Source: Candidatus Omnitrophota bacterium | Lineage (GTDB): Bacteria; Omnitrophota; Gorgyraeia; 2-01-FULL-45-10 | Assembly: GCA_041650935.1 (NCBI GenBank) | Contig: JBAZKH010000004.1 | Span: forward strand, 5,040 to 69,039 | DNA: 64,000 nt | Direction: 5' to 3' | Shown: piece after piece, positions 1-28,778 of the stretch | How the letters are laid out: each line of letters starts with the position of its first letter | Position numbering within the stretch: the first letter of the stretch is position 1 | Program-made: the position numbers and the translations under genes | Notes under the pieces: generated by a model | What the model was told of the DNA's origin: nothing | The model's input: the letters and a program-made list of their open reading frames with translations, nothing else | Database searches by the model: none

Positions 1-330
1 CTTAACTGGGCGGCAAGGTCCTTGGGCTTTATGCTGCTCAGTACCCCGGCACATGAATTTGGCCACAGCATGCTTGCCCGGGACGCCCGGACAGAACGTC
101 ACATATTCTTAGGCTATGTAAAAGACGCCGAAGGTAACGCCGCAAAATACGGAGGGATCCTAGGCAATCTTTTAACAGCCTCTCTATTTGGCATAATAAC
201 AGCCGTCTCCATATGCTTTTCCGGCCAAATGAACGGGCTGCATTACTACGCATTATTTATCATAACCGCCAACCTATTTTCGATTCTTTCAGAACTTATA
301 GGTATACCCTTTGGCCGCGGAGACCTCTCA
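1..330 (+). other. Site-2-protease (peptidase M50)-like membrane module: HEFGH in a hydrophobic helix plus a downstream NLFSILSELIGIPFGRGD motif (compare NxxPxxxLDGG).
   Basis: HEFGH is encoded at 52-66 inside a TM segment. A second hydrophobic helix ending in ...IPFGRGD is at about 271-324. The spacing and context resemble the RseP/SpoIVFB family. Confidence 0.4.
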
Positions 331-3300
331 GTTACGAAGACCGCACCGGCGGAATCGGAATCTGCGCCTGCAACACAACCTGCGGAAACTATAACCCCGC
401 TTGCGCGTACCGGATGGCTGCTCAGCAGAGCGGCTATAGCTCTAAGTATTGGCGGCCTTATCGCCTATCCGGAGATATTATACGGCTACCTGCCTATATT
501 TATACAAGGATGGCTTATTATCGCTCTCTTAGCCGGTGTAAGCAAGATCAAAGATAAGTTCATCCTGAAGGCGGGGATATCATTTTTAGGCGTAGTAATG
601 ATAACCGGTATGTTCCAAGATATCGCAGTAAACGGCGTACTGCCGATAATGGCCGTTGAATCTGCCTGCAAATTTGCCGGCGCTCTCTTAGCCAGAAAGA
701 TCTTTACGAAAGAGCCTCTGAAGAAGACGATCGGCACCGCGACGAAATGGAGCCTGGGTCCGGCAGTGACCGACCAGTACTATTATAATCTCGTCCTATA
801 TCCTTTCCTGCAGGCGTCTTTCTCTAAAGCGCATTTCGGTGTTTGGGCGCCGTTATTAATGGCGTCATTCGACACGGCGCTGGCAACGCTGATCCTGCAT
901 ATGTGGCTTTCGGTAGCGGTTGGAACCATCCTGGTCGAAAATAAGGATATCTTTAAAGAGATGGCAAAGGCGCGCTCTGTCGCAAAGAAGGTCTATCCCT
1001 ACAATTTTCTCTTCTGGTTTACGGCGCTCCTGACGGGATGGATTATACTATATGCTTTTTCGCTCGACGCATCGTGGCTTAAAGTCATGCTTATGCCTTT
1101 TAAGATCGTATGGATAGGGGTTATTTCCGAGGTGATGAGGCGTAAATTCGAGACGGAAGAGTCCGCTCCGCCGGCCGGGACCAAAACCGTTGCCGGCGCC
1201 GGCCGGGTGGTTCGCGCCGTTTTGATAATGGTTACTTTTGGCATTGCATCGCTATTGTTTAATACCGGTACCGCCCTGGCAAATAAAGCGAACCAGCAGG
1301 AAACGCCAGCGGCGACCGTTGAAGAGGTTATGGACCTATCCGCCAAAGTCTATCCCGGCAGAGATGTGGAAGAAAAAGTGCGGGCCATGGATGCCGAAAA
1401 GCTTACTAATACGAGAGACAGGTTAAGAAAAATGTGGGAAAAGAAGCTGGCGGAGGAAGCAGAAAAGAAGCAGGATGTGCTGATAAAGGCCAGTGATCCG
1501 GCAGTGCAGGCTCAGTTTAGAAAAATAGCGGGTGAGAACGCGGTATATTTCAGCCCCGGCGTGGGATACGACACGACGACAGGCCTTGTATATAATCATA
1601 TAAAAGTAGATAACGGTATCATTGTAAGCAGGATGGGCTTTTTCAATGGGACCGACATCGGACTGTGCCTTGACTCCCTGAAAGATTCTGTAAAAGGCAA
1701 TATAAACATACCGGGAGTTACGCCTGTAAAGGCCGCGCAGATGATAAGAAAGACGCTTAATACCCTTTTAAAGATACAAAGGGATCCCAGGCTAAGTCAT
1801 AGAGGGCTATTTTACTGGTATCAGTTTAACGGGGAAAACATAAATGTAGATCCGGGCCATCCTATTGCTTCATCGGTCGATAATGGAAAGCTCAGCCTTT
1901 CTTTAGCGGCAGTAGCAGGCGGTTTGTTGAAGGAGAAAGGATGCCGGGATATAGTTCGCATGGCGCGCGAGATAATAAATGAACAAAATAAACCATTCAG
2001 GAACGCTGACGGCAGGATTGTAAACGGCGCCTGGGCAGAGCTTTACGATCCGGTTAAAGGTTTATTGCGGGCAGGTGTTGATAGTAACAGCAGCTTTCTT
2101 ACATATTGGATAGATAGAAAGACCAATGAATCCCGCTCGGCGGTCGCATGGGCTATCTTAAATTCCGGCGGTCAGGTGCCGATAAGCGCTTTTACGAACA
2201 TGGAAGCACCCGTCTGGCCTGAACCATATGAAACTCTGGGAGGGAAAAGCGTCAGCAGGGTCTTATCATGGAAGGGTTGCAAGTTTGAATTTGCCGATAC
2301 GTCTTTATGGATAGACGAGGGAGCTCTATCTTCCGCGTACCGCGAAGCAGCCTTGGAATTTCTCACGGTTATGATAGACAACAATATAGGAAGGGAAAAA
2401 TTGCCGGCTTTCAAGTCGGCAGCTTTTGGCCCAGACGGCACATACAGGACCTACGGAACGCATAGTTTGGCCGAAACGGAAGTGCGGTTCAATAATCAGG
2501 GAGAAGTCTGCGACGGGGTAGCGTCGCCCCACACTATAGGCCTGGCGCGTCTTATTTCACCCGATGTAGCGGCTACGCTAATGGCGCGGCTAATTGCCAA
2601 TTACCCTCAGCTTAATACACCGTTTGGATTATTGGACGGCATAGATACTAATGGAAATGTAGCTAATACCATATGCGGCCAAAACCAGGGTATGCTTGTC
2701 ATCGGATTGCAGGGACACGAAAACTCCAAAGATGTCGCCGCCTATTTACAATCGACCGGGCAATATAATCTGCTGAAGCAGATATATGCAGTTCAGGAAA
2801 TTACCGGTCTCCACAGTAACACAACACCCGAGGATGCGTTGCGCCTCATAATTGCCGCCGAAAAACGCCCGCACATAGCCATTCCCGATAAAAAACAGTC
2901 TCCCGCGCGGCATGCGCCCGCGCCGAAACCGGCGGCGGGTTATAACCTGCTGGCAGATTATGCCCTTTCTTCTTCTTCGGAAAACATGGGCGGCAAAGCG
3001 ATTATTTCATGGCACGGCGGTGTATTGACCGTAAAACATAATCCCGCAGACGGCGCCGGCCATAGTTATGCGGCAAACAATTTAAAGAAGCCGTATATAT
3101 TGGGAGAGGGCGAGGCGATCGAGATAAGGGGCCGCGGTAGTTTTACGCTGAAACTGGAAGGCTCTACGACGATACTCAGGAAAGTCGATCTCGATGGAAC
3201 GAACGGGGTATTTACGGTATCCGATCTGCCGGCCGGCATGAGTATAGGGATTATGGTTATAGATAATGTCAAGCCCGGCCCGCCGGTTATTATTAAAGAG

Positions 3301-6300
3301 ATACGGGTAATAAATACGCGGGGAAGCGTAAAGACAAGTCTCTTTAAGCCGGCAATTCCAGGTCTGAAGATTATGAGGGCCGCTGCAGGTTTGGGTATCT
3401 TCTTCGCCGCGCCGGCACTTTTACCGGCCGCGGAGGTAGCGGTCCGGAATACGCCCGGGGCCTCATTACCGTTATTTGCCGGCCTCGACCCGGCGGTTTA
3501 TGTAGCCTGCGGCGTTATAGGTTTTGTGGCGCTGTTATTAATAGGGTGCATGTCAGCCGGAATGATGCTTGATAAGAGCCGGCGGAAGGAATCTCATCAG
3601 GCGCAGTTTAATAGACTGGGATTGCAAGAGGCAAAAAAACCGACGGCACATGGGACTCCCGGTCTTCCAAAGAGCCCTGCAGGATCCGCGAAACCTCATG
3701 AGGAGACGGCAGGCGTTGCCTTGAAGGCGCCGGTTGCACCACCGGCTAGAGCGCCGGAAACGGTAAGCGTACCGCCTGCCGAAGCATCCGTAGAACATCA
3801 TACTGCCAGAGAGAAGACGGAAGAAGAGTTGAGGGAGGAAGGTAAGGCGCTAATAAATGGGTATTTCGCAACGATAAATGGCCACCTGGCTTACCTTGAA
3901 GGCCTGCGTAACAAATGCGCTGAAAAGAATACCGGTGCGGCGTGGAAAGAGTACGGGGAAGAGTATCAGGGCGTGAAGATGCTGATAGATGGGATAAGAG
4001 AAGATATAAAGAAGGCATACAGGGCGATATCCAGGGAAAAAAGCAGTATAGAAAAAAGCATAGTAAAATTCCTGACAGAGGCTAATGTGAAACTTAAAAA
4101 CCTTGCCCCCGGGCATGTTACCGGCGCCGGAGACCAAAGGTTCGGAACTACAGGCATGGTCCCGGCCGTATGGAAAAAAGTCATTCCCGTTTTAAGAAAT
4201 TGGGGTTTGCCAGCCAGGGTAATAGCGGCCATGGGCGGGTTCGAGGAGATCTTCTTTAGTTCAATAGTCGTCGGATGCCCGGGAGTTGCCGGAAAACTCA
4301 TCGGCGGCGCGTTCGGTCACGTAGGGATCGGAACATATACCGGCTTAGCGATCGGCTCGCTCCTAAGCGCCTGGCTATTCCGCAGGGCGCATGCGAAAGG
4401 AGTCTATCATTACGATGCCGGCGGAGAGCTGACCCGCGGCCCGCCGTCGGCCAGGGCTATAACTATCCTTGGTGTTGCTTTACGTCTCGCATATTTTATT
4501 CCAGCTCTGCTATTACCTCTAAATGTCCCGCCGCTGCTTTTATGGGCCCCTTTCTTTACCGCCGCTATCCACGCTATTTATAACAGCATTCTTGCGCCGG
4601 GTCTTGGCCTTGCGCTGGGGATAGCAAACATGCGGCACGCAATAAATTCTAACGAGAAAAGCGTACAGGGCAAGATAAACAGGGTAATAGAGAAGATACT
4701 CGCGATTCCGACTATTCAGCAGCATGGCGATGAGGCGGCTAAGTTTTTGAACGGTTTCGCCGATTCGATGCCGCTTCTTCATAAGGGCGAAGCGTCGGAA
4801 GAGCGGTTGTATGAGCAGATGCTTATAGTATACCAGTATTACAGATCCGCCCCAAAAGAAATCAAGTTTAACAACCCTTATGATGAAGACGGCCGCTCTT
4901 TTGGACATACCGATATTATATTCGTCGGGGAGAACAGGAATAATCTTGAATCGGAGGTAATGAAAATTATTAAAAAGAATTGCGCCGTCGAATCGAAATG
5001 GGCGTATGTATACGGCGATACCATAATCATAGTCTTCGAAGCAATAAAGAAGAAAGGCGTCTATGGCACATTGAACCGGCAAGGCATGCGTGCCATAAGG
5101 CGCGATGTCGAGAACCTTATAAACGTAGGAGGAGAACGCAGGAAGATCGCGATTGAAGGTACGGCATCCGATGTCCACAAGATCATCATCGGCGCGGCGC
5201 ACAAGCTCGATTTAATACACAGTGTGGATGTCTATGGATCTAATTTAGCCCATCCGTGGGACAAGCCTTACATAGCAGGGCTGAAGATAAAAAATGAGGT
5301 TCGGTACTTTATAAGCACTATGCTGGAGATAATAGCTGCCTTTGCCGCCGCCGGCGGGCCGGAAAGCACGGAAGCGCAGATTTTGTCTTCGCTGATAGAA
5401 CCGTCAATAACCCTGATAGAGAACCGCGGCAAACGATGCGAGATATGCTTCAAGTCGTGTATCGACGAGGAGATCCGCCGCTACCCCGGTAAACGGGATG
5501 AGCTTCGCAGACTGAAGGCTCGCGTCATGAAGGAGTTTAAAAAGCGTAATAACGTTAAGAAAGACGACGTAGAGAAAGAGATCCAGCTTTTTAACAGGGC
5601 GGTAGAAGGGGTTGTGCGGGAACTCGATGAGATGATTTGGCGGTTTAAGCGCGGCACTACGGGAAGCTCGAAGAGCATCGCCAGTGCATATGAAGTTGTC
5701 AAAGGCGCGTTCCTGGAATACGATCCCGCAAGCTGTGAAAAAATCAAGTCATGGATACGCGGCACGGACGGCCCCGCTAATCTCAGGGGTAAGAATGCTA
5801 TTACGATCGTCGAGCATCAGGCGCGTAACTATAAAAAATGTTATGACAAAACGCCCGCCAAACACCATGAGTTTAAGAGCACTATGTATGAGATGTACAC
5901 TATGTGGAATATGCTCTTGAACCAGCTCCACCGGGTGAGGGCCCTGGATGGCGGGATCGATGCCGTATCGCTTAAAGATCGTGTACGCGCAGAACAGAAG
6001 CGTTTGCAATATGCCATAATCCAGCTAAGGAGTGAGATAAGGGCATCGGCCAGCAGGCTATATCTCGAAGAATTTATCGATGATGTGAAGCGGCGCGCTC
6101 CCCGCATCATAAGGACGGGGGGTGTGACAGCGATGAGCGCAGTGGAGGATCTTGCAGGGGCCGCGGAAAGGTTGATAACCGGCGATAAAGATGTTTCCGA
6201 GACGGAGCGGGAGTCCAGGCGAAGCGGAGTGCGTCTTGTTGTCATGCGCCTTGCCGAGCTGATCGAGGGAGATCAGCTCGGGCCCATAGAGGTTAAGGGT

Positions 6301-9300
6301 AAAGAGGATATAGTCCTCTTCGTTGAGGCGATGGACCCGTCAAGGGTATGGCAGATAAAGCGTAACTGGGGTGACCGGGTAAAGACTATCGTGTGCCCGG
6401 TCGGAAGCTCTAACTCCCATTGGGTTGTGCTGGCGCGCCAGCTAGGTTTTAACGTCATAGCCGCCGCACGTTACAGGGCACGTAAAAGATTACCCATGAA
6501 CCCCTATGATATAGAGACGGGACAGCCTGTTTTGGTCGATACCGCGAGAGGGCTTGTAACTATTAACCCGAAAGAAGAGACTCTGAATAGTTACGCGGAG
6601 CGTAAAAAGATGCTTGGCTCAAGAGAGCGTTTCTACCTTTCGAAAGCCAAAGAGGATGCCTGCACCAAAGACGGTGCCAGGCTCAATGTTTTAGCGGATG
6701 TCGGCAACCTCGACCAGATCCCGGAGGTTATAAGCCGCGGCGCCGAAGGGGTAGGGTTATACAGGACCGAGTGGCTTTACGACGGCGCGCGGAGGCTGAC
6801 GGAAGACGAGATGACAAAGATTTTTGTAAAGGCGTCGGAGAAACTCGCCGCCGGTAAGCCTCTGACCCTGCGCCTTCTCGATATGCGCGAGGACAAGCTT
6901 CCCTCGACGCTTGCCCCCAGCAGTTACGGAGGGTGTGACTATTACTTTTCTGATCAGGAAGGGACCAGGGTGGCGATAGAAGAGTTGAGGGCAATGATGA
7001 AGGCTTACGCCAAAAGCAGGAAGAAGAATATCGAGATACTATTTCCCATGGTCTCCTCCGACGATATACCTATGATCAAAAAAATCGTCGAAGGGCAAAA
7101 GAGAATGTTGATAAATGAAGGTATCCCTGTCGAGGCGCTCAACGGAATTAAAATAGGCGGCATGATAGAGACGCCCGAAGCGGCCAGAGATGCGGAAAGG
7201 CTATTCGAGTATTTCGATTTCATCAAAGTCGGCATGAACGACTTCTACACGGAATCGAAACCCGGCACCGACAGGGAATCCGACAAAGACGACGAATATT
7301 TTACGACGCTCAACCCCGTGATACTGGGGCGGCTTGTGCATGTAGCGAAAGCGGCCAGGATAGCGCGAAAGTCTCTCGGTTTTTGCGGCATGTGGGCCAG
7401 TTCCCCGCGGTTTGCCCTATTCCTATTGCGGCTTACGCGTATATACCCGGACATTTCTATTACATCCGAAATAGAGGAATTACCCCGGCTTAAGGCGATA
7501 ATCAGGCGCTCTACGGTCAGAGAATGCCTGCAGTTATTCAGGCCCGTGCGTTCGATCGCGGATGCAAAGACTCCTGTCTCTTCCTCGGACCTTCTGGATA
7601 AAATGGCGCGCAAAAAGGAGAAGCAGGTGGAGGCTAGGATATTGCAGAGCGCCGAATACAGGAGATGGAAGGTGGAGGGCGCGGAGGCTAAGTTACAGGC
7701 TGGCGCGTGGACGGGCCTGGCTGAGCGATTCGGTATACGTAATTACTCGCCTTTTATACACGCACCCTTCTTGGAGGAACTTGCCAAAGTGTGTCTGCCG
7801 CTGTATATAGCCGGGAGCGTATCCTGGGCGGTATTAGGCATTGCCGCGTTTGTCTTTGTCGCGTTACACATCTTTAACGAGCCCCTGCCGTTTGCGCCGC
7901 GGAATATAGATCCTAAGGAAGCCGCGGGCGGGCTAGTTGCGGAACGTCCGGTAAGAATCATGGCCTCAAGCGGGGAAGTCTTCGATTTCCGGTATCAGAA
8001 AGTTCCGAAAGAAGGAAAAGCGGCTTTTACGCTGACCGCGCATGATAGCGCCGGCAGAGCCGTGGGATTTATAGACGTGGTCCGCGATGCGTACGGCCAA
8101 AACGCGGTATATGGGCCTTTTTCTCACGACCTGCATAGCGGCCTTAAATCCGATTATGGTTTATATGTAAGAGATGAATATAGGAATGGGGGTATTGCGA
8201 CCGGCCTGCTTATCCTCGCCATGGCAATAGCCCAGTCCAGGGGGAATGACACTTTTATACTAGGATGCCCGAATATAGACCAGAATATTTCCATGGAGAT
8301 ACTTGTCAACAAGCTTTCCGGGCAAGGAGTCATATTTTATAAGAGTAGTATGGGCAAGTATTGTGTTTCGCTGGTTGGTATCAGGGACAAGCTTCCCATT
8401 GCGTTACCATATGTGGTAATAGGCGATAAGGATAAGAAGTTTATAGAGCGTCCATGGGTTATCCTAAGCTGGTTTGCCAGAGTGTTTACCGCGCCGCTCG
8501 TCGCGGCGTCGGCCGGCATAGCGATACCTGTATTCGGCCCGTCATTATTCGATAAACTGGGCCTTGTCTATATGTCCGGATTTTCCTCCAACGCCTCCGG
8601 AGCGACGATCCTCGCCATGCTCGTTCACCTGGGGATCAATGCTTTAGCGGCATTGGTGAATAAGACGTCCGGCGCAAAGTCCGGATACGCCGCGTGGGCT
8701 GGGAAATTTTACGGAAGGAGCGGATCGCCGTCGGACGATCCTCTGTCGGTGAGGATAAAACAATACGTAAAGGGCGAGCCATTTGACGAACTAGCGCAAT
8801 ACATCGCGCATAAAACCGCGCCGGCTAATAAATTTGCCGGCGCTATCCGGAGATTCACAAGCCGTTTCTCCTCCAGGATAACTCCGGATGAAAAAGCCCA
8901 TCTTGAGAGATTTGCTTCGATGCTTTATATCATGGGCAGGAACGGCGCAGGGTTGTCGGAGATATTCAGGTCCGGGATTTCCGCCGATACTCGCGCCGCA
9001 TTACAGCAGAATAGACGTATACTAGCGCTGATAGACAACTATAACGATATTGTGAAGGAGATGGTCAAAGTGCCCGCCGGGCCGTTGGAACCGGCCTGGT
9101 CTATGGAACATGTCGCGGACATATTCGCAAGGCTCCATGATGAAGGTTCGACAGGCGCGGCGGAGAAGAAGTATATCCGCAAGATGCGCAAAGAGTTAGG
9201 CGAATTTTTAATCGCCAGTCCCAGCTTCAACTCTTATCTGGGAAATTTAAAGAGCAGGTTAATGGAAGCTGTTATGGAAGAGAGGGGCTGGGGTAAAGCG

Positions 9301-12300
9301 GTTGCATGTTTCGAGGACCTGATCAGGAGCGATACGGCGCGGCATTGCCTTAACGACCTGGATTTATTGTTAGCCGCGAAGAGTGATAAGTATATCATGC
9401 CGTACGATATCGAAACTATCGTAAAACTGGTGATGATAGGCCTGGCGGATAGGGACGGTATGATTATATGTCACACGGCCGAAGCGGCATTGAATGCTAT
9501 CCTTGAAGAGGCGTATAACCCTAAGTATTCCAATAGTAAAAAGCGCGATCTTATATTAAATACCGTTCGCAATACAAAAGTTATGATAGACGGCCGGGAA
9601 GAGACGGTCCTGAGCCTTGTGACCCGGAATGCGGTCGAAGGCAATGTGCTTATCCGCGCGGAAGCCCTTGAAACACTCAAGCTCTTAGGCGAACCCGGGC
9701 CGAAAGGCGGGACAGGCCCCGAACCGCTCGGCCCTTCGGGCTTCGGATCCGGGGCGGGCATAAGCGCTAAGTCGCTCCTGCCGATATTTATCGCGCTTAC
9801 ATTATTTGTCAGTATGGGCGCTAAAGGTGACGTTCCCATCTGGGAACTGCTGTGGAATATCGCAAAGAGTTATCCGGGCCCTATGCTTCTCTTTATAGCC
9901 GCTGTATTATTTATCCTAGCTAGTTTGATTAAAGAGCCGGACGCGACCATAAATAAGGCTAAAACCGCCAAGCCTGCCGACGTATCCAAACCGCCGGAAG
10001 TACCAAGTAGTGAGCCCGCTGTAGCGTATGAACCCGGTACATTGAACGATAAATCCGGGCGGATCAGTGTCATGGTATTTATATTCGGCGTGCTTCTAAT
10101 GGCGGGGAGCTGGATCTGCGTAAAATACGGCTATACCGGAGCGGCAGGTCTCTTGACCCCTCTTGCTATGTCCGGGCCGCATATGGCGATTCCGGTTGTA
10201 TTTGCCATAATATTCTCGGCTATAGGATTCTCCTCCGGGGGATTTGTCTCTTTTCTTTCTCTGGCCGCGTCTTCCGCCGCGAAGATATTTTTATGTACGG
10301 CAGTCAAGAATAATTACTATCATAATATATTGGCCATGATGCCGGGTTCGATATTCAACTATTCCGACATGGCGGCGTATGCTATCGGCGCGATAGTCAT
10401 ATATCTGGCATATCCGGATAAAAGATCCATTAGGGGGGCATTTATCTTCCCGCTCCTTATTATAGCGGCCATATTGGCAGGTTTCGAGATCATGCGTCCC
10501 GGTTCTCCCGTACCGGCGTGGCATGGCTTCTCTTGGGAGACGATCAAGTCGTCGCCGTTGCAGAACCTTGTGCCGAAAGGTTTCTCCGCGGCTATGCTTA
10601 CCGGTTTTGCCTTTATCGGAATGGCCGCGCAATTTAATGGCATAGGGAAGAAGCGGCCGGCTTCTTCTCCGGATTCCCCCGATGGTGATCCGCATCGTCG
10701 TCTTCGCAGGGATTACATTATATATGGAGCGGTTTTCCACGCTCTTAGTTTTGCCGCGTTTGGGTATTTGTCGGTACTGCTCGTCTCTTCCAGCAGCACT
10801 GTCTTACTGCGCAGTATAGCCGCTCCCGGCGTCCTGTATTTCCTGGCGCAATTCGCCTCTACGATGAGTTTTGTGGCTTATGGTATAGGGTTATTGCCTC
10901 CGATGGAAAAGTTTTTCATATCGACGCATGAAAAGATGCGCCGGTGGTTTGTCAGCGAGCCGCTCGCATGGACCGTCCAATATATAATATCGCCGTTCTG
11001 GGTGTTGCCGTATATGGTGATATCGTTTGGTAAGCGCGCAGGCGCGATAGAGGCCGCGGCGGATAATGAGCGCAGGATCTCTGAGCTGGAGGCGGAAGAG
11101 GTCGTCGAAAGAGAGTTCCCAGGTGAGAGTGTGCCTGTAAAAGAGACTTTAAAGAGATTTTTAACCGCGTACAAGATGCTGGTTCGGGGGCATAGCACTA
11201 TCAACAAAGTAAAATTCATTTATGCCGGGAATAAAGAATCTCCGGGTAATATCAAGAGGGTGATCGATGCTGTTACGCAGTCTCTTGCCCGGGAATCCGG
11301 CATTATTATGGATCAGCCGGAGATAGAACGCGCCATCGAGCTTTCTAAAGCGGCGCTTGCGCTCGAGTATATAACTAAAGGCAGTCCGGTACTTATCAAA
11401 GCCAATAAGAGTTTTTCGGATAAGGCCGAAAAATTAATTATAAGAGCACATAAAGCTCTTGGGGTGATCTCGATATTACTGATTTTCTCCCACGCATTTT
11501 TAGCAAATATCACCATCACTAGCATAGGATTCCTGGGCCTCGCTTTTGCAATAGGCGGATTTGCCGCTATTATGGCAGTACGTTTTGCGCCCGACGGGCT
11601 GATAAGAAAAAAGGGGCTGGAACTGCTTTCCGCATCGGATATCCCGGATCTTTATAGAAGAGCTATTATCGATAAAGTTATCGCTATGCTGGCGGACGGC
11701 AGACTGCCCCGGAAGTCTTATGAGGATAGCGTGATCAATAGTTTATCGCGGGTAGCAAAGACAGATTCCGATACGGAAAGTATCAGGCAATATTTGGATA
11801 CTCGCTTAATGACCGAAGGGAATATATTTACTCGCAGGAGACTGGAGGAGTACGTGACACTCACTGTGAACGTGGGCCCCAAACCACTCGGCCCTTCGGG
11901 CCTCGGATTCGGGGCAGGCCCCAAACCACTCGGCCCTTCGGGCCTCGGATTCGGGGCAGGCCCCAAACCACTCGGCCCTTCGGGCCTCGGACTGCGCCCA
12001 GAACCGGATGGTTCTGGGTCCGGGGCAGGCCCCGAACCACTCGGTCCTTCGGACCTCGGATTCGGGGCAGGCATGATACCGGCCCTGAGGTGGATATTCC
12101 AGAGGACGCAAAATACGCGGCTAAAGTATCTGGGCATGACCGAGCGCGGCCAGGCCGTGTGGGAGCAAGCCGTATTCACTGCTATTACTAATTTGCTTTC
12201 CTGGACAGGCTGGTACGGCGGGACGATCGGAGCCATCTTTATTAGCTGGTCTGTATTTTATGCGAGCCATTTGGGGAGCGTAGGCGGAGTAAGAGCCCCT

Positions 12301-15300
12301 CCGGCAAGCGCCATATTTCGCGTGTATTTATTGAATGTATTAAGCCTTTCTGCTATTACTCCTTTCGGCGGTATCACAGGTCTTGTATTAAATATCCTGC
12401 AATTTGCGGTAGTTTCAGCCATTCATTACAGATGGAATATCGGATACCTTGCTTCTACAACTAAAGAACCCCCTGCAGAATTAAAGGTGCCGGCCGATTT
12501 AAAAAGAGATATCATGATCTCTTTCGCAAGCGTAAGCATGTTCTTTGGAATTCTTGGAATTATTAATTTAGGCGGTTTTGTATCTATAGGTATGCTAATT
12601 GGCGGTATCGCTGTCATGGTATTCTATATCCTTAAAAGGGAATCCGATGAAGAAAGGGATCTGGTCAACAAGCGGATGGAATTGATGATACCCCATGAAC
12701 TCGTCGGGCGCATGCATAGTATGCTGCACGATTATTATAGCAAAATAGCTCCGGTCGGCGGTAACAGCTTTTTACAGCCCGTAATCCTTGTGGACAAAGA
12801 GTGTAAAGATAGAGTGATAAAAAGGCTGAGGTTTGATTTGGACATTTACGACGAAATGGAAAGGCATATAAACAGCACATGGCGTTCGCCGCGCGCTGTA
12901 AGAGAAGCGGCCCTTCTCCCCGTAGAAGCGCGTCACAAAAAATGGCGTGAAACTATCATAGCGCAGTTAGGGCTTAAGTATGAAGCGAGGGAACGAAGGG
13001 GCTTAAGCATAACAGGTATTTACGATGTTGCCGGAGATGTTGACGAAGAGTATATACGCATGATCGGGGACCTGGCCCTGGATTACCGTGTAAATCCAAT
13101 CCTGGTGACTACGGACGAAAAAGTTGCCGACCGGCTGATTAGAAATATGCGCGCGTCGGGCGTAGTGAAGTTTGACTTACGAGTCGGCTCGCCGGAACCC
13201 GTTGAAAATTATGAGGCTCCAAATATGCTCGAAATGCTCTCACCTGCCATCCGGGGAAAACTCGGCCGATTGTTATCGGAAAGGTTCCGTCCGGATCATT
13301 GGCATCCCGCGGCGGGGGTTATATTTGTAGACGACGCTGATGTGGAACCTGTGATGAAAGCCTTGGAAGAGGAACTGAAGTACCGGGTACCTTTTAATGT
13401 GATAAGAGGTAACTTATTATATTCCAGCGATGATCGCACAAAAGCCGGAAAGGAAAAGAGGCGGAGATATTACAGGGAACTTCAAGATGAGTTGGGAGTA
13501 AACGGTGATTTCCATTTCGAACCTGTCGCGTTAATAATAACCCGGGGGATGGATGAAGGATACGCGGCAATGCTTATGGGCTCAGATGCGAACAAGGAGT
13601 TTGCGCCTGTCTTGATAGTTCCGTCGGGAGCAAGAGCCGCGAAAGGTTTCGAAAAACTGGGCTCATCCAACCGGGTGGATTTCACATTTTACATGGATCT
13701 TAGAAGCGAAAAGTCCAGGCAGAAGGATCCGCTCCCTGAAAATAGTATCGCCGCGCATGCGGTAAAAGCGTGGGAAGAGCCTTTTGCCTGCGCCGGTTTT
13801 GCCGGAGGCCTTCCTTTTGGCTCGTCTGCCGCCGCAGTGCCTCATCTCGCGCCGGAATATAGGTATATAGGCGGGGCGGCGGGTTTTTTTGCGTCGGCGC
13901 CTTTCCTTATTGCTCAGCAGGGAACCCTCGGTCTGGCACTTGCGGTAATAATACCGGTCATCATGTTTCTGCCGGGATGGGGATTCCATGAACTTGGGCA
14001 CATAATAAACAGGGATTCCGCGAGAAACTCTTCCGATGAGATGTATGGCGGCCCGCTAGCCAGCGCTATATTATTTGCCATAACATCCGCCGCCGCGATA
14101 TTCTTTGCCTTCTCACCGGTCCAGGTACCGGTCATATTTACCAAAGTACCGCTGGCCGCTATCCTTACTTCCGCCGCCGCGAGTTACTTTGTCCACATCT
14201 TCGCGGATGAGAATGCGCTCATTATCAAACTGCGCTCCTCCGGGCTTGTTAAAAGGGCGGATAATTTTTATAAGCGCGGCGCCGCAGAGTTTTCGAACGG
14301 AAATTACATAGGAGCCATGCTTTTGTTCGATAAATCCATATGCGGTTACACCAGGATCGTCGAGAAATTTTCTTTTGTCCCCACCGGCTGTAAGGGCAAT
14401 ATTCTTTCGATGTTCCGGATGATGAAATCCATTATACGCTCGATCGAGATCAACGAACCTGGTGACGGCGAGAAGTCTCAATACCGTGATATTTGGAGAG
14501 GTTGTGATCACCGCATGACCAATTGCCTGAAGCTGATCGATTCGCATAGTAAGATATCCGCCCCGGCCAGAGAGATATCGATCCTGGAATTCCTTGCTGA
14601 CGATGAAGATGGCTCGGTCCAGCTCGCGCCGCGGTATATATTCGGCGGTATAGTTTTGGGCATAGCCGTCGCGGCGCCTCTTCTCTTTTTAGAGCTGGGA
14701 TGGTGGCCGCTTGCCTTAGACCTGGCGGTGATTACATCAATAGCTTCATTTACCGTGGGCTGGGTTGCCCATGAGCTTGGCCACTGGATAGGCGGAGATT
14801 TCGGCAGGACTAACGTCAAGGAGATGCGCGCCGGGCCGGCGGCGAGTCTCGCATTATTCGTAATAACATCCGCCGCCGCGATAATTTCATTTCTGTCACA
14901 CGCCCGGATATCGTTGATTTATCTGGACGTGCCGCTCTATAGCCTGTTTGCTTCCGCCGCCGCCAATTACCTGGTCCATATATTTGCCGACGGGGGCGCG
15001 CTATTCAGCGCCCGCGGTAAAGTTTCTCCGGAAGGATTGCTCGAAGAAGCGATCGGTCATTATGACGGAGGCGTAAAAGCTTTCAATGAGGATGATTATC
15101 TTGGGGCGATGATGGCGTTCGATAAAGCGATCTTAATATATAGCGAAGCATTAAAGCGATTCTCGATCGTACCGCCAGGCTGTGAGAGGATATTGAGAAA
15201 TATGTTACGGAAGATGGAAGAGATCGAGAAATTTATCAGTGGCAGGAAGTGGGATGAACAGATATACGAACCTTATTTAAAGCGATGGATACACTGCCAT

Positions 15301-16947
15301 AACCATTTGATCCATTATTTGGATATGGTCGCGACGTCGGGAAAAGTAAACGTTTCAAATGATAATACGTCCCGCCGCGGGTTGGGCGACGACGGATATT
15401 TTACACCCCGGGGTGTAATTCTCCTGCCCGCGGTCTTAGCGCTTGTTGCGGCTGTAAAAGAGGCCGGCTTTAAGTTTCCAAGTTTTAACGTGGATATCAG
15501 CCAGGTGCCGGCCGGCTATATAGTTACCTATGCTGTAGCAGGCGCTATTATTCTGTACTTTGCCGTCAAGATTTTAAGAGAGGCATATAAGATCATCGTT
15601 ACCGCGTTAAAGATTGCGGTAGGGTTAGCCCTGGTTTACGGTATCCTTGCCTACGCGGTCCCGTATATCACCGCGCACTGGCCGCAGATTACCGCTTCTT
15701 TCGGCGGACTGATGGAATGGCTCAACTCTTTAAAGAAGACCGGCGCCGCCGCGTTGTGGCTCGCGCCGGCCGGGCTCGGGGCAGCTATCTTGGGCTCAAT
15801 AATCGATATGCGAAGTTTTATGAATGGTGAAGAGGCGGGCCCCGCCCCAAGGAAACTCCTTATCGGGACGACGTCCGAAAAGATATACGATGAACTGAAG
15901 CCCAGAGTAGGCAGTGCCGGATTCCCGCAAGATATAGTTGCTGATGTGGTCTTGCTCAAAGATACGGTGTCTGCGGCTAAAGAATTGTCCGCCCGGGCCA
16001 GGGAGCAAAACCTCACAGGTGTCCTGGTCGACGACACGATCTCCATCGAGAATACAAGGACGGAACAATTCAAGCAAGACCTGGCCGAGGTTAAATTAAC
16101 AAGGGATTACGATATCGTATTCCGGGCGACGACGATAGATAATAGCGTCCGCGACCGGATAGACGATGTTATTAAAGCGCTCCTGCCGAGGCTCGGTAAG
16201 GTCGACTTCGACAAGGCAATACGCGAATATCAGAAGAAACATGCGGCTAAAGGCTTCAGCCTGGAAGAGGCCGAGAGGCTGGCTACATTGCGCAGGCTCG
16301 TTACGGAGCGCAGGGTCGATGAAAGGGTGAAGGATGCATATTACACCCCGGTCCCGGCCATCGATAGGTCTAGCCTGGCCAAACCGGTAGTCATAGTTAC
16401 AAGCGAGGATACGGCCCTCTCCGACCCGTACACCGTCGAGAACATGGACGAGGCCGCAAAACAGGGCATAGTAAGCTACATTGTCGGCGGAGACGATATA
16501 AAGAACGCGGAAGATATGCTCTTATTCTTACGCGCGGGCGGTTATGCGGGAGATGGCAGTATGGCCAGGTTCGTGAACAAGCACGACTACGCCTCCTATA
16601 GCGCGATGATGGATGCGATTGCGGGCCAGACTGGCACTTCCAGAGAATTCATAGGCGTGCGGGCCGCTAAGGGCGAACTTATGAAAGATGGTGAAAAGCC
16701 GGGCGCCGAAAAGTTCCTCGAGATCGAAGAGATAGAAGTGAATAATACCAGGGTCCTTGCCGCCATACACTCATACTCGGTGCTGGTCAACCTGGTTGTG
16801 GACGGGGCGGGCAAACTACCTCCGGGCGTTACCGATGAGCGTCAAGTTAGCGGTAAGTTCAGGTTTAACCCGATCCTGCCGATAGGCATAGATAAGGAGA
16901 TTGCAACATACAGGCACGCGATGCTCTTACTCAGCAGCGCCGCATAA
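1..16947 (+). CDS. Giant multidomain polytopic membrane protein, 5'-partial (at least 5,647 aa). It has M50-like HExxH modules, a GH144/DUF3131-like domain, a PEP-utilising-enzyme module, a GNAT-like domain and Gly/Pro tandem repeats.
   Basis: The reading frame is open from nt 1 (no stop before the first Met at 22) to TAA at 16945-16947. Many long hydrophobic segments alternate with recognisable soluble-domain motifs. A REP hairpin follows the stop. Confidence 0.8.
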   Translation, partial: LNWAARSLGFMLLSTPAHEFGHSMLARDARTERHIFLGYVKDAEGNAAKYGGILGNLLTASLFGIITAVSICFSGQMNGLHYYALFIITANLFSILSELIGIPFGRGDLSVTKTAPAESESAPATQPAETITPLARTGWLLSRAAIALSIGGLIAYPEILYGYLPIFIQGWLIIALLAGVSKIKDKFILKAGISFLGVVMITGMFQDIAVNGVLPIMAVESACKFAGALLARKIFTKEPLKKTIGTATKWSLGPAVTDQYYYNLVLYPFLQASFSKAHFGVWAPLLMASFDTALATLILHMWLSVAVGTILVENKDIFKEMAKARSVAKKVYPYNFLFWFTALLTGWIILYAFSLDASWLKVMLMPFKIVWIGVISEVMRRKFETEESAPPAGTKTVAGAGRVVRAVLIMVTFGIASLLFNTGTALANKANQQETPAATVEEVMDLSAKVYPGRDVEEKVRAMDAEKLTNTRDRLRKMWEKKLAEEAEKKQDVLIKASDPAVQAQFRKIAGENAVYFSPGVGYDTTTGLVYNHIKVDNGIIVSRMGFFNGTDIGLCLDSLKDSVKGNINIPGVTPVKAAQMIRKTLNTLLKIQRDPRLSHRGLFYWYQFNGENINVDPGHPIASSVDNGKLSLSLAAVAGGLLKEKGCRDIVRMAREIINEQNKPFRNADGRIVNGAWAELYDPVKGLLRAGVDSNSSFLTYWIDRKTNESRSAVAWAILNSGGQVPISAFTNMEAPVWPEPYETLGGKSVSRVLSWKGCKFEFADTSLWIDEGALSSAYREAALEFLTVMIDNNIGREKLPAFKSAAFGPDGTYRTYGTHSLAETEVRFNNQGEVCDGVASPHTIGLARLISPDVAATLMARLIANYPQLNTPFGLLDGIDTNGNVANTICGQNQGMLVIGLQGHENSKDVAAYLQSTGQYNLLKQIYAVQEITGLHSNTTPEDALRLIIAAEKRPHIAIPDKKQSPARHAPAPKPAAGYNLLADYALSSSSENMGGKAIISWHGGVLTVKHNPADGAGHSYAANNLKKPYILGEGEAIEIRGRGSFTLKLEGSTTILRKVDLDGTNGVFTVSDLPAGMSIGIMVIDNVKPGPPVIIKEIRVINTRGSVKTSLFKPAIPGLKIMRAAAGLGIFFAAPALLPAAEVAVRNTPGASLPLFAGLDPAVYVACGVIGFVALLLIGCMSAGMMLDKSRRKESHQAQFNRLGLQEAKKPTAHGTPGLPKSPAGSAKPHEETAGVALKAPVAPPARAPETVSVPPAEASVEHHTAREKTEEELREEGKALINGYFATINGHLAYLEGLRNKCAEKNTGAAWKEYGEEYQGVKMLIDGIREDIKKAYRAISREKSSIEKSIVKFLTEANVKLKNLAPGHVTGAGDQRFGTTGMVPAVWKKVIPVLRNWGLPARVIAAMGGFEEIFFSSIVVGCPGVAGKLIGGAFGHVGIGTYTGLAIGSLLSAWLFRRAHAKGVYHYDAGGELTRGPPSARAITILGVALRLAYFIPALLLPLNVPPLLLWAPFFTAAIHAIYNSILAPGLGLALGIANMRHAINSNEKSVQGKINRVIEKILAIPTIQQHGDEAAKFLNGFADSMPLLHKGEASEERLYEQMLIVYQYYRSAPKEIKFNNPYDEDGRSFGHTDIIFVGENRNNLESEVMKIIKKNCAVESKWAYVYGDTIIIVFEAIKKKGVYGTLNRQGMRAIRRDVENLINVGGERRKIAIEGTASDVHKIIIGAAHKLDLIHSVDVYGSNLAHPWDKPYIAGLKIKNEVRYFISTMLEIIAAFAAAGGPESTEAQILSSLIEPSITLIENRGKRCEICFKSCIDEEIRRYPGKRDELRRLKARVMKEFKKRNNVKKDDVEKEIQLFNRAVEGVVRELDEMIWRFKRGTTGSSKSIASAYEVVKGAFLEYDPASCEKIKSWIRGTDGPANLRGKNAITIVEHQARNYKKCYDKTPAKHHEFKSTMYEMYTMWNMLLNQLHRVRALDGGIDAVSLKDRVRAEQKRLQYAIIQLRSEIRASASRLYLEEFIDDVKRRAPRIIRTGGVTAMSAVEDLAGAAERLITGDKDVSETERESRRSGVRLVVMRLAELIEGDQLGPIEVKGKEDIVLFVEAMDPSRVWQIKRNWGDRVKTIVCPVGSSNSHWVVLARQLGFNVIAAARYRARKRLPMNPYDIETGQPVLVDTARGLVTINPKEETLNSYAERKKMLGSRERFYLSKAKEDACTKDGARLNVLADVGNLDQIPEVISRGAEGVGLYRTEWLYDGARRLTEDEMTKIFVKASEKLAAGKPLTLRLLDMREDKLPSTLAPSSYGGCDYYFSDQEGTRVAIEELRAMMKAYAKSRKKNIEILFPMVSSDDIPMIKKIVEGQKRMLINEGIPVEALNGIKIGGMIETPEAARDAERLFEYFDFIKVGMNDFYTESKPGTDRESDKDDEYFTTLNPVILGRLVHVAKAARIARKSLGFCGMWASSPRFALFLLRLTRIYPDISITSEIEELPRLKAIIRRSTVRECLQLFRPVRSIADAKTPVSSSDLLDKMARKKEKQVEARILQSAEYRRWKVEGAEAKLQAGAWTGLAERFGIRNYSPFIHAPFLEELAKVCLPLYIAGSVSWAVLGIAAFVFVALHIFNEPLPFAPRNIDPKEAAGGLVAERPVRIMASSGEVFDFRYQKVPKEGKAAFTLTAHDSAGRAVGFIDVVRDAYGQNAVYGPFSHDLHSGLKSDYGLYVRDEYRNGGIATGLLILAMAIAQSRGNDTFILGCPNIDQNISMEILVNKLSGQGVIFYKSSMGKYCVSLVGIRDKLPIALPYVVIGDKDKKFIERPWVILSWFARVFTAPLVAASAGIAIPVFGPSLFDKLGLVYMSGFSSNASGATILAMLVHLGINALAALVNKTSGAKSGYAAWAGKFYGRSGSPSDDPLSVRIKQYVKGEPFDELAQYIAHKTAPANKFAGAIRRFTSRFSSRITPDEKAHLERFASMLYIMGRNGAGLSEIFRSGISADTRAALQQNRRILALIDNYNDIVKEMVKVPAGPLEPAWSMEHVADIFARLHDEGSTGAAEKKYIRKMRKELGEFLIASPSFNSYLGNLKSRLMEAVMEERGWGKAVACFEDLIRSDTARHCLNDLDLLLAAKSDKYIMPYDIETIVKLVMIGLADRDGMIICHTAEAALNAILEEAYNPKYSNSKKRDLILNTVRNTKVMIDGREETVLSLVTRNAVEGNVLIRAEALETLKLLGEPGPKGGTGPEPLGPSGFGSGAGISAKSLLPIFIALTLFVSMGAKGDVPIWELLWNIAKSYPGPMLLFIAAVLFILASLIKEPDATINKAKTAKPADVSKPPEVPSSEPAVAYEPGTLNDKSGRISVMVFIFGVLLMAGSWICVKYGYTGAAGLLTPLAMSGPHMAIPVVFAIIFSAIGFSSGGFVSFLSLAASSAAKIFLCTAVKNNYYHNILAMMPGSIFNYSDMAAYAIGAIVIYLAYPDKRSIRGAFIFPLLIIAAILAGFEIMRPGSPVPAWHGFSWETIKSSPLQNLVPKGFSAAMLTGFAFIGMAAQFNGIGKKRPASSPDSPDGDPHRRLRRDYIIYGAVFHALSFAAFGYLSVLLVSSSSTVLLRSIAAPGVLYFLAQFASTMSFVAYGIGLLPPMEKFFISTHEKMRRWFVSEPLAWTVQYIISPFWVLPYMVISFGKRAGAIEAAADNERRISELEAEEVVEREFPGESVPVKETLKRFLTAYKMLVRGHSTINKVKFIYAGNKESPGNIKRVIDAVTQSLARESGIIMDQPEIERAIELSKAALALEYITKGSPVLIKANKSFSDKAEKLIIRAHKALGVISILLIFSHAFLANITITSIGFLGLAFAIGGFAAIMAVRFAPDGLIRKKGLELLSASDIPDLYRRAIIDKVIAMLADGRLPRKSYEDSVINSLSRVAKTDSDTESIRQYLDTRLMTEGNIFTRRRLEEYVTLTVNVGPKPLGPSGLGFGAGPKPLGPSGLGFGAGPKPLGPSGLGLRPEPDGSGSGAGPEPLGPSDLGFGAGMIPALRWIFQRTQNTRLKYLGMTERGQAVWEQAVFTAITNLLSWTGWYGGTIGAIFISWSVFYASHLGSVGGVRAPPASAIFRVYLLNVLSLSAITPFGGITGLVLNILQFAVVSAIHYRWNIGYLASTTKEPPAELKVPADLKRDIMISFASVSMFFGILGIINLGGFVSIGMLIGGIAVMVFYILKRESDEERDLVNKRMELMIPHELVGRMHSMLHDYYSKIAPVGGNSFLQPVILVDKECKDRVIKRLRFDLDIYDEMERHINSTWRSPRAVREAALLPVEARHKKWRETIIAQLGLKYEARERRGLSITGIYDVAGDVDEEYIRMIGDLALDYRVNPILVTTDEKVADRLIRNMRASGVVKFDLRVGSPEPVENYEAPNMLEMLSPAIRGKLGRLLSERFRPDHWHPAAGVIFVDDADVEPVMKALEEELKYRVPFNVIRGNLLYSSDDRTKAGKEKRRRYYRELQDELGVNGDFHFEPVALIITRGMDEGYAAMLMGSDANKEFAPVLIVPSGARAAKGFEKLGSSNRVDFTFYMDLRSEKSRQKDPLPENSIAAHAVKAWEEPFACAGFAGGLPFGSSAAAVPHLAPEYRYIGGAAGFFASAPFLIAQQGTLGLALAVIIPVIMFLPGWGFHELGHIINRDSARNSSDEMYGGPLASAILFAITSAAAIFFAFSPVQVPVIFTKVPLAAILTSAAASYFVHIFADENALIIKLRSSGLVKRADNFYKRGAAEFSNGNYIGAMLLFDKSICGYTRIVEKFSFVPTGCKGNILSMFRMMKSIIRSIEINEPGDGEKSQYRDIWRGCDHRMTNCLKLIDSHSKISAPAREISILEFLADDEDGSVQLAPRYIFGGIVLGIAVAAPLLFLELGWWPLALDLAVITSIASFTVGWVAHELGHWIGGDFGRTNVKEMRAGPAASLALFVITSAAAIISFLSHARISLIYLDVPLYSLFASAAANYLVHIFADGGALFSARGKVSPEGLLEEAIGHYDGGVKAFNEDDYLGAMMAFDKAILIYSEALKRFSIVPPGCERILRNMLRKMEEIEKFISGRKWDEQIYEPYLKRWIHCHNHLIHYLDMVATSGKVNVSNDNTSRRGLGDDGYFTPRGVILLPAVLALVAAVKEAGFKFPSFNVDISQVPAGYIVTYAVAGAIILYFAVKILREAYKIIVTALKIAVGLALVYGILAYAVPYITAHWPQITASFGGLMEWLNSLKKTGAAALWLAPAGLGAAILGSIIDMRSFMNGEEAGPAPRKLLIGTTSEKIYDELKPRVGSAGFPQDIVADVVLLKDTVSAAKELSARAREQNLTGVLVDDTISIENTRTEQFKQDLAEVKLTRDYDIVFRATTIDNSVRDRIDDVIKALLPRLGKVDFDKAIREYQKKHAAKGFSLEEAERLATLRRLVTERRVDERVKDAYYTPVPAIDRSSLAKPVVIVTSEDTALSDPYTVENMDEAAKQGIVSYIVGGDDIKNAEDMLLFLRAGGYAGDGSMARFVNKHDYASYSAMMDAIAGQTGTSREFIGVRAAKGELMKDGEKPGAEKFLEIEEIEVNNTRVLAAIHSYSVLVNLVVDGAGKLPPGVTDERQVSGKFRFNPILPIGIDKEIATYRHAMLLLSSAA
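1500..2800 (+). other. DUF3131/GH144-like (alpha/alpha)6 glucanase-like domain inside ORF1.
   Basis: The segment ...SSVDNGKLSLSLAAVAGGLL... through ...TPFGLLDGIDTNGNVANTICGQNQGMLVIGL... parallels the stand-alone GH144-like proteins in this window (STVDTAILVAGALTAGEYF ... YGFRDSIN ... GIGEAMILLPIEN). Confidence 0.4.
6270..7500 (+). other. PEP-utilising-enzyme module: a phosphohistidine swivel domain followed by a PEP-binding TIM-barrel domain.
   Basis: CPVGSSNSHWVVLARQLGFNVIAAA (His codon at 6418-6420) ends ...VDTARGLVTINP, matching the GGRTSHAAIIARELGIP...vdG..G.v.vnP pattern. Downstream, AEGVGLYRTEWLY, IKIGGMIETPEAA, VGMNDFYTE and GFCGMWASSP match the Enzyme I / PEP synthase TIM-barrel motifs. 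Confidence 0.6.
7960..8350 (+). other. GNAT N-acetyltransferase-like domain.
   Basis: YVRDEYRNGGIATGLLILAMAIAQSRG (8180-8212) has the RxxGxA acetyl-CoA motif A in a typical beta-alpha context. Confidence 0.45.
11875..12069 (+). repeat. In-frame 42-nt tandem repeat array of about four units, encoding GPKPLGPSGLGFGA.
   Basis: Units 11875-11916 and 11917-11958 are nucleotide-identical. Unit 3 (11959-12000) is identical for 33 nt and then diverges. After a 27-nt insert, unit 4 (12028-12069) has 4 substitutions. A diverged solitary copy (EPLGPSGFGSGAG) lies at about 9715-9765. Confidence 0.9.
13940..14470 (+). other. M50-like HELGH membrane module, copy 2, first unit of an internal tandem duplication.
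   Basis: WGFHELGHIINRD (HELGH at 13987-14001) is followed by ...GPLASAILFAITSAAAIFFAF..., ...SYFVHIFADENAL and a helical ...NYIGAMLLFDKSICGYTRIVEKFSFVPTGC... tail. Confidence 0.45.
14720..15250 (+). other. M50-like HELGH membrane module, copy 3, second unit of the tandem duplication.
   Basis: VAHELGHWIGGD (HELGH at 14770-14784) is followed by ...GPAASLALFVITSAAAIISF..., ...NYLVHIFADGGAL (an xDGG-type motif) and ...DYLGAMMAFDKAILIYSEALKRFSIVPPGC..., collinear with copy 2. Confidence 0.45.
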
Positions 16948-17010: not shown

Positions 17011-17087
17011 CACTACTGCGCGCCACCGCGGTAGTGGGTTAACTTTGCTCTTGCAGCCCCGCCAAGCGGTTGCAGAGCAAAGTTAAC
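17011..17087 (+). other. Two further stem-loops in the ORF1-ORF2 intergenic region.
   Basis: The first has cactac...gtagtg arms (17011-17036). The second has a 13-bp stem gttaactttgctc / gagcaaagttaac (17038-17050 / 17075-17087) enclosing an inner ccgc...gcgg hairpin. Confidence 0.5.
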
Positions 17088-17090
17088 CAT

Positions 17091-17112: not shown

Positions 17113-17141
17113 TAAAATATAAAATAGTTAGTTTTTTTGTA

Positions 17142-28770: not shown

Positions 28771-28778
28771 TAATAAAA

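Follow-up and report, generated by a model that had tools for sequence, protein, structure and literature searches.

What can a bacterium do with a single membrane protein of several thousand amino acids (aa) in which a phosphoenolpyruvate (PEP)-utilising module and a glucanase-like domain lie between clusters of hydrophobic helices, and are such embedded modules real enzymes? This question is raised by the stretch of DNA treated here, 64,000 nucleotides (nt) of contig JBAZKH010000004.1 of a Candidatus Omnitrophota bacterium, whose whole length is called the window; its first 16,947 nt belong to one giant gene, the product of which is designated G1. We think it rather probable that G1 is a polytopic multi-enzyme giant, serving as a membrane-anchored scaffold that co-localises the breakdown of beta-1,2-glucan with sugar-phosphate and PEP/pyruvate chemistry. 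The gene and its first membrane region are as follows.

1..16947, plus strand: C-terminal 5,648 codons and stop codon of the G1 gene (open reading frame translation; NCBI MFA5143645.1)
148..1284, plus strand: first cluster of transmembrane-like helices, about 7-11 segments, the count being uncertain (hydropathy)

Frame 1 of the plus strand has no stop codon over nt 1-16944 and ends with TAA at 16945-16947, and an open reading frame (ORF) of 5,648 stop-free codons cannot be a product of chance. The earlier note on this DNA had described a 5'-truncated membrane ORF of over 5,600 aa, and this description is borne out. The translation opens inside the conserved motif STPAHEFGH, which indicates that the gene is cut by the window edge, and an exhaustive HMMER search found the full product at 100% identity as MFA5143645.1 (P0083 in our set; "MAG: putative PEP-binding protein", MAG standing for metagenome-assembled genome), 7,316 aa long and without a partial flag. 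The window ORF is the C-terminal 77% of this protein; window residue n is P0083 residue n+1668, and window numbering is used below unless P0083 is named. Exact look-ups assigned the neighbouring window proteins to MFA5143650-64 of Candidatus Omnitrophota bacterium. The N-terminal 1,668 aa lying outside the window have two detectable domains, a Radical_SAM domain (SAM, S-adenosylmethionine; E 5e-13) with a CX3CX2C motif and DUF7790 (E 4e-14). A hydropathy scan gave 31-36 transmembrane-like segments in G1, grouped in clusters with soluble stretches of 200-1,000 aa between them; topology was considered by hydropathy and the positive-inside rule, which do not fix the helix parity.

Between the first membrane regions and the middle of the ORF lies the module on which the functional reading of G1 mainly depends.

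5530..7566, plus strand: Enzyme I (EI)-type PEP:protein phosphotransferase module, aa 1844-2522 (Pfam, NCBIfam, PDB sequence matches and AlphaFold2 fold)

The module consists of a helical region like that of the N-terminal half of EI (EIN), a swivel His domain at aa 2101-2184 and a PEP-binding TIM barrel at aa 2217-2502. A swivel-His domain plus TIM barrel without ATP-grasp had been proposed in the earlier note, and this part stands: the PEP-utilizers mobile domain (PF00391; E 1.1e-6, 28.6 bits against a cutoff of 23.1) and PEP-utilizers_C (PF02896; E 1e-37, 130 bits against 22.8) cover just these two domains, and Pfam scans detected no ATP-grasp domain in the module. The accompanying statement that an HPr-binding domain is lacking does not seem to hold in view of the EIN-like region, for which PEP-utilisers_N (PF05524) gave 21.5 bits at aa 1844-1886, below its cutoff of 24.4, and which also appears in the predicted fold. 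The AlphaFold2 (AF2) model of aa 1820-2600 has a mean confidence (pLDDT) of 72, with high confidence across the helical subdomain and everything after it up to and including the barrel. The alignment of the model with full-length phospho-EI (2hwg) covers 576 columns (E 1.4e-26), and those with the EIN structures 1zym and 2eza cover 226-235 columns (E 3e-5 to 1e-4); its barrel has a TM-score of 0.84-0.87 to 2xz7 and 2xz9. Model residues 38-170, upstream of the EIN-aligned part, have pLDDT <50. PDB sequence matches were 1e-33 to 1e-36 for EI chains and 1e-28 to 1e-30 for their C-terminal (EIC) domains. In the NCBIfam search, TIGR01417 (PTS_I_fam; PTS, phosphotransferase system) scored 7.5e-49, compared with 1e-19 for PEP synthase and 1e-8 for pyruvate phosphate dikinase (PPDK); we rejected identity with PPDK or PEP synthase in favour of EI, basing on these much weaker scores and on the lack of ATP-grasp.

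The equivalent of the phosphorylated histidine, H2140 (nt 6418-6420), aligns with E. coli His189 and is invariant in 41 sequences. Equivalents of H189, R296, R332, D335, K340, E431, N454, D455, R465 and C502 are retained in G1 without exception (10/10 when aligned to 2kx9 and 2hwg, and likewise in the MAFFT alignment), and among these R296, R332, E431, N454, D455, R465 and C502 are what we take to be the PEP/Mg2+ ligands and the proton donor of E. coli EI (UniProt P08839). Judging from sequence and predicted fold, the module appears to be a complete EI-type unit with the full EI domain order and not a truncated swivel-plus-barrel. It resembles the EI of the PTS (PtsI/PtsP; E. coli P08839; 2HWG, 2KX9, 2HRO) in the order of EIN helical and His domains, linker and PEP barrel, in the retention of H189, R296, R332, E431, N454, D455, R465 and C502, and in the absence of ATP-grasp, whereas it is only 21-31% identical, has about 150 additional helical residues in the N-terminal region, and sits within a membrane giant with no HPr or EII partner evident. 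The suggestion that a PEP-driven phosphotransfer activity is tethered to the membrane appears reasonable, since all EI catalytic residues that we checked are kept.

Whether such a module is peculiar to G1 can be judged from its relatives. The exhaustive HMMER search collected 139 proteins at E<=1e-30, most of which are ordinary PtsI/PtsP, and large proteins with an embedded EI were found near the top. There are at least ten such proteins of Omnitrophota type besides G1, among them the following.

P0084, 2,143 aa: 71% identical over 818 aa; NDK and NAGPA in place of GH192
P0085, 5,098 aa: two EI modules
P0099, 5,158 aa: embedded EI
P0186, 6,642 aa: embedded EI
P0087 and P0088, about 1,300 aa: embedded EI
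P0107, 1,751 aa: embedded EI and GT2
P0113, 1,693 aa: embedded EI
P0115, 1,706 aa: embedded EI and TPR repeats

Where the source of these proteins is named, it is Candidatus Omnitrophota in every case. P0084 comes from another Omnitrophota MAG; its 71% match spans G1 aa 1536-2351, and its first transmembrane cluster is 31% identical to that of G1 and placed in the same order. The catalytic set is complete or has one residue changed in nine of the ten giant-embedded EI modules, complete or partial, the tenth being truncated. From these alignments, EI looks like a recurrent and catalytically constrained building block that has been shuffled among giants.

The second enzyme module of G1 lies nearer to the window edge.

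1489..2787, plus strand: GH192-type (clan GH-S) beta-1,2-glucanase-like (alpha/alpha)6 domain, aa 497-929 (match to PDB 8XUJ)

This domain matches chain residues 33-438 of EeSGL1 (PDB 8XUJ) with E 1e-40 and 143 bits. EeSGL1 is a characterised GH192 endo-beta-1,2-glucanase, in which D149, the candidate general base, and E221, the general acid, have been established by mutagenesis (Nakajima et al., Protein Sci 2025, PMC12102758); the former aligns with G1 D627 (VDNG; nt 1879-1881) and the latter with G1 E710 (NESR; nt 2128-2130). The alignment runs along the whole (alpha/alpha)6 domain and the surroundings of both residues are kept, whereas EeSGL1 is a free-standing protein of 438 aa with a signal peptide and the G1 domain is internal, with transmembrane clusters on both sides and some 200 aa of uncharacterised sequence after it. 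On this sequence evidence the module is of GH192 type with both catalytic acids intact, and it is predicted to hydrolyse beta-1,2-glucan. A six-hairpin glucanase had been expected in the earlier note, correctly as to the type, but its assignment to GH144 does not hold: PF10091 (Glycoamylase) gave only 13.4-15.2 bits against a cutoff of 27, as compared with 77-230 bits for three genuine proteins elsewhere in the window. GH192 members are known both with and without a signal peptide (PMC12102758), and the family therefore does not fix the membrane side of the module.

The rest of the window is a beta-1,2-glucan locus, whose gene set lies at 27482-33867 and 46471-63511 on the plus strand. It comprises three PF10091/GH144-family proteins with signal peptides, a cytoplasmic GH94 phosphorylase of 790 aa, a substrate-binding protein with two ATP-binding cassette (ABC) permeases, a CBM11/30 protein, a ROK kinase, a HAMP protein and an OmpR/HisKA two-component pair. 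In addition, a 2,044-aa protein (51296-57430, plus strand) has about 13 N-terminal transmembrane segments and, behind them, the supersandwich and catalytic domains of GH94. Two further giants, G2 and G3, carry metabolic enzyme modules.

17011..17169, plus strand: terminator-like hairpin (17011-17036) and promoter-like site (17142-17169), separating G1 from G2
17223-26666, plus strand: G2 giant ORF, about 3,147 aa, with PGM_PMM_II (phosphoglucomutase, PGM; E 8.8e-5) and cupin-type glucose-6-phosphate isomerase (GPI; E 2.8e-20)
34990-44043, plus strand: G3 giant ORF, 3,017 aa, MFA5143653.1 'ROK family protein'

G3 has a ROK module at aa ~846-1152 and a full alanine dehydrogenase at aa 1225-1655 (E 5e-31 to PDB 8hyh). 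BLAST found no paralogy among the four giants of the window, which are thus not duplicates of one another.

If G1 acts as a scaffold, it would hold the glucanase, the EI-type phosphotransferase and other modules near the machinery for glucan uptake and phosphorolysis. The GH192 module would convert beta-1,2-glucan to sophoro-oligosaccharides by inverting hydrolysis, GH94 phosphorolysis would yield glucose-1-phosphate, and the PGM, GPI and ROK modules could take it onward to fructose-6-phosphate. The EI module would autophosphorylate at H2140 from PEP with release of pyruvate, which alanine dehydrogenase could take up, and would pass the phosphoryl group to a putative acceptor, which may be an HPr-like protein with a gene of its own or another module. 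The HExxH modules described below would provide zinc-binding sites and may be processing proteases.

Several observations weigh against this scaffold. Concerning EI itself, the TIGR01417 score of 166.6 bits is far under the equivalog cutoff of 341.7, PRK11177 reached 134 bits against its cutoff of 824, and the canonical EI loop NPFLGWR is replaced in the module. Concerning its partners, Pfam found no HPr, EIIA, EIIB or EIIC domain in G1 or in window ORFs of at least 200 aa, and the HPr active-site (His15) motif occurs in none of the six reading frames of the window, nor in the related giants. Apart from the EI module and the first 126 aa, nothing detectable links G1 to the other EI-bearing giants, and with such an unconserved architecture the combined modules need not be functionally coupled. 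Sidedness is a further difficulty. G2 and G3 open with classical Sec signal peptides (in G2, MMRKLISVLVIQSFLLSNIAFA followed by ETLQ) and have no other transmembrane segment, so that the PGM/GPI and ROK/alanine dehydrogenase modules are predicted to be extracytoplasmic, which does not suit a simple cytoplasmic metabolon. Within G1, only one transmembrane segment (aa 2597-2626) is predicted between the EI module and a GNAT-like region; taken literally, this single segment would place two cofactor-dependent modules on opposite faces of the membrane. The region in question is the following.

8053..8262, plus strand: possible GNAT acetyltransferase core, aa 2685-2754, with transmembrane-like segments on both sides (borderline Pfam match)

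A GNAT domain claimed for G1 in the earlier note could not be confirmed, the match to PF00583 being just below the cutoff (20.1 against 20.7 bits, E 8e-4) and the PDB sequence search of this region giving no match. The region has an R-N-G-G-I-A string fitting the acetyl-CoA motif A (R/Q-x-x-G-x-G/A), and a GNAT identity of aa 2685-2754 is plausible from the sequence.

We now weigh the other ways in which the same protein can be explained. One is that G1 is a polyprotein, cut by its HExxH modules or by other proteases into separate, independently acting membrane-anchored enzymes. The modules and the linkers that bear on this explanation are as follows.

1..345, plus strand: HExxH module 1 (HEFGH at nt 52-66), incomplete because the window starts within it; modules 2 and 3 are its homologues
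13843..14505, plus strand: HExxH module 2 (HELGH at nt 13987-14001) and the helical soluble segment after it
14620..15297, plus strand: HExxH module 3 (HELGH at nt 14770-14784; its third helix has N-x8-DGG) and helical soluble segment
11875..11991, plus strand: perfect 42-nt tandem repeat, 2.8 copies (117 nt), encoding a GPKPLGPSGLGFGA linker just ahead of a transmembrane cluster

HExxH motifs occur in the window ORF at aa 18, 4663 and 4924, three compared with 0.1 expected by chance, and these homologous copies count in favour of a polyprotein. In all three, a hydrophobic helix ends in the HExxH, and two further helices of this kind come after it. Taken together with the helical segments that trail them, module 3 is a tandem duplicate of module 2 (40% identity, E 3e-38), and module 1 is a more distant copy. 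Weak zincin-type matches were obtained round the motif, to M48 (E 0.0037, below cutoff) and, in the PDB profile search, to fragilysin (E 0.013), both confined to the HExxH helix. Proteolytic processing of Omnitrophota giants has been proposed by West-Roberts et al. (10.1101/2023.11.21.568195), and repeated proline/glycine-rich linkers immediately precede transmembrane clusters in G1: five PxPLGPSG units were found at two sites, each directly ahead of such a cluster and each after one of two homologous helical segments (aa 3166-3253 and aa 3895-3987). The tandem repeat above belongs to these linkers, and a single copy related to it is found near aa 3242 (nt ~9720); PxPLGPSG units were found neither in G2-G4 nor in the other giants.

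On the opposite side, all protease families stayed below significance. Three S2P-like HExxH...DGG modules of M50 type had been claimed in the earlier note, and what survives is three homologous HExxH modules: DGG follows the third HExxH only, the same position being FADENAL in module 2 and FGRGDLS in module 1, and Peptidase_M50 (PF02163) matched none of the three even at E<=10. The AF2 model of module 3, built on a three-sequence alignment, has pLDDT 45-70 in its transmembrane part and no PDB fold match at E<=1e-3, S2P not being among the matches. The modules share with Site-2 protease/M50 an HExxH that closes a hydrophobic helix, together with the two hydrophobic helices after it, and the N-x8-DGG string of module 3 recalls the M50 NxxPxxxLDG motif, whereas the prolines of this second motif are missing and modules 1 and 2 have no DG. 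The M50/S2P assignment was rejected, being without evidence from hidden Markov models, PDB profiles or fold, and so was a metzincin assignment, the fragilysin match covering the HExxH helix only and the spacing to the third ligand being unfit. These modules are best described, from their sequences, as uncharacterised membrane zincin-like modules. They are undetectable in the other EI-bearing giants, and cleavage sites in G1 are not known. With these points for and against, we regard processing of G1 into separate enzymes as unlikely. Apart from this, the soluble helical segments after modules 2 and 3 (14230-14505 and 15010-15297, plus strand) were predicted better than any other part of the model (pLDDT 74-87) and weakly resemble an MIT-type three-helix bundle (TM-score 0.75-0.78 over ~72 columns, E about 1).

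Another explanation is that the EI module is a regulatory sensor which, like EI-Ntr (PtsP), reads the PEP/pyruvate ratio, its phosphorylation state controlling neighbouring modules or partners. Many PtsP-type proteins are among its top sequence relatives, no PTS permease or HPr was found within the 64-kb window, and the catalytic set is kept, as signalling would also need. Pfam found, however, no GAF or other sensory domain beside the module, and EI-Ntr too requires an HPr-like acceptor (NPr), of which none was found. Sequence alone cannot separate sensing of this kind from the scaffold reading, and we give the sensor the same low probability as proteolytic processing.

A bolder extension of the scaffold reading, which we hold to be somewhat less probable again, is that the EI modules of Omnitrophota giants are energy-coupling heads of a PEP-driven phosphotransfer independent of HPr and EII, and that G1-G3, together with the GH144, GH94 and ABC proteins, form a membrane-bound line leading from beta-1,2-glucan to fructose-6-phosphate and from pyruvate to alanine.

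The sidedness problem leads to a third alternative, in which the metabolic modules of the giants, EI included, act outside the cytoplasm (in the periplasm, at the surface or at the contact with a host or prey) on the metabolites of that other cell. It is favoured by the classical Sec signal peptides of G2 and G3 with no further transmembrane segment, and both preprints on Omnitrophota giants place metabolic domains, by prediction, on the outer face (10.1101/2023.11.21.568195; 10.64898/2026.06.07.730766) and likewise raise the sidedness puzzle; Omnitrophota have been described as host-dependent or predatory. Chemistry with PEP, SAM/Fe-S and acetyl-CoA is, however, unexpected outside the cytoplasm, and P0083 has neither signal peptide nor transmembrane segment in its first ~1,130-1,143 aa, the radical SAM domain included. 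Such an outward or prey-directed action is, in our view, improbable.

The last alternative, that the G1 ORF arose by chimeric assembly or by a frameshift-free accident joining unrelated genes, might appeal to the perfect 117-nt tandem repeat at which one short-k assembly breaks and to the contig end close to the annotated start, but we judge an assembly artefact very unlikely in the face of 5,648 stop-free codons, a repeat period of 42 nt that keeps the frame, an independent assembly that agrees completely over the last 1,661 codons, and the P0084 protein of another MAG, which has the 71%-identical stretch and the 31%-identical first transmembrane cluster in the same order. The assembly in question is Logan contig SRR8542065_49454 (independent, short-k, k=31-based), which is 100% identical to window 11962-34614 (22,653 nt) and begins within the 42-nt repeat, its break there being explained by the repeat itself.

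A separate matter is the upstream end of the gene. The ENA contig covering the same region stops 7 nt upstream of the annotated G1 start, which itself lies 5,004 nt before the window, and P0083 aa 1-126 are 46% identical to an internal segment of P0085 (aa 121-241) and 41% identical to an internal segment of P0186 (aa 482-615). These matches inside other giants, together with the contig end, suggest that the true N-terminus may be further upstream; the G1 gene may be longer than annotated, or split. Word-index homology searches with the N-terminal 1,400 aa of the window ORF and with the HExxH region gave no match, but the index lacks sensitivity in this case, since PDB 8XUJ is matched at E 1e-40 by that very N-terminal stretch; a scan of genome and metagenome contig collections with the first 600 aa likewise found no relative and missed even the source contig itself.

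How far G1 is new can be judged by comparison with published giants. West-Roberts et al. (bioRxiv 2023, 10.1101/2023.11.21.568195) describe Omnitrophota 'Archaeovorins' as giant polytopic proteins with glycolytic enzyme domains and frequent pyruvate-diphosphate kinase domains, and a 2026 preprint (10.64898/2026.06.07.730766) defines a 'multi-enzyme metabolic cluster' class containing radical SAM, PGM, ROK and GNAT domains and reports that 94% of long proteins are membrane-associated. G1 shares with the giants described there the phylum, the alternation of many transmembrane helices with divergent enzyme modules, and a domain set of PEP/pyruvate type, GNAT (borderline in G1) and radical SAM; PGM, GPI and ROK reside on its neighbouring giants, and carbohydrate-active enzymes are nearby. 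G1 thus belongs to an already described class of Omnitrophota giant multi-enzyme proteins, and the earlier claim that its architecture is not a known one cannot be upheld in view of these preprints and of the recurrence of EI in other large Omnitrophota proteins. Differences were also found. With 7,316 aa, G1 is below the sizes of the published sets (at least 30,000 aa in 2023 and at least 10,000 aa in 2026); unlike Archaeovorins, it gave no SecA_DEAD, C39 or S8 domain in Pfam scans of its whole length; and its PEP module is of EI type with an intact active site, in place of the PPDK reported there. A GH192-type glucanase and a beta-1,2-glucan locus were not found in the accessible text of either preprint, and a literature search on the PTS in Omnitrophota gave nothing useful. 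What G1 adds to that text is accordingly an EI-type PEP module whose active site is conserved across giants, a GH192-type glucanase and a defined beta-1,2-glucan locus.

Other features of the window can be summarised briefly.

15808..16944, plus strand: C-terminal soluble region of G1, ~380 aa, not matched significantly by any family (AAA_33 at E 0.02 only)

Altogether, about 2,500 aa of soluble G1 sequence gave no significant match in the Pfam and PDB sequence searches. In the locus, the 2,044-aa GH94 protein is reminiscent of the C-terminal half of a cyclic beta-1,2-glucan synthase, and Pfam detected no glycosyltransferase domain in it. An IS200-type Y1 transposase ORF (33892-34554, minus strand; E 3.8e-6) adjoins the sole low-GC stretch of the window (34001-36000, GC 0.417 against about 0.50 elsewhere), and the end of the Logan contig just past this transposase suggests a repeated mobile element. 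The ORFs 47154-49460 and 49067-51235 (plus strand) overlap by ~390 nt as listed; the ENA call for the second, a TPR protein, is 592 aa, which places the real start downstream of GTG 49067.

Few known proteins are larger than the giants of Omnitrophota, and for none of their modules has a function been demonstrated so far. G1 is comparatively small, and its EI and GH192 modules have intact, well-understood active sites and could each be expressed and assayed alone, so that whether giant-embedded enzymes are real enzymes becomes directly testable. The retention of the EI catalytic set in about ten giant-embedded copies argues that PEP-dependent phosphotransfer is under selection in these giants, and identification of the acceptor of EI would tell whether a PTS-like relay can run without the usual HPr/EII chain. 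Hexose-entry steps are reported missing in most Omnitrophota genomes (10.64898/2026.06.07.730766), and if the giants do carry out a phosphotransfer independent of HPr and EII, their EI modules might supply these steps. The locus, finally, links giants to one defined substrate, beta-1,2-glucan, in place of the generic 'cell-wall degradation' that has been proposed so far.

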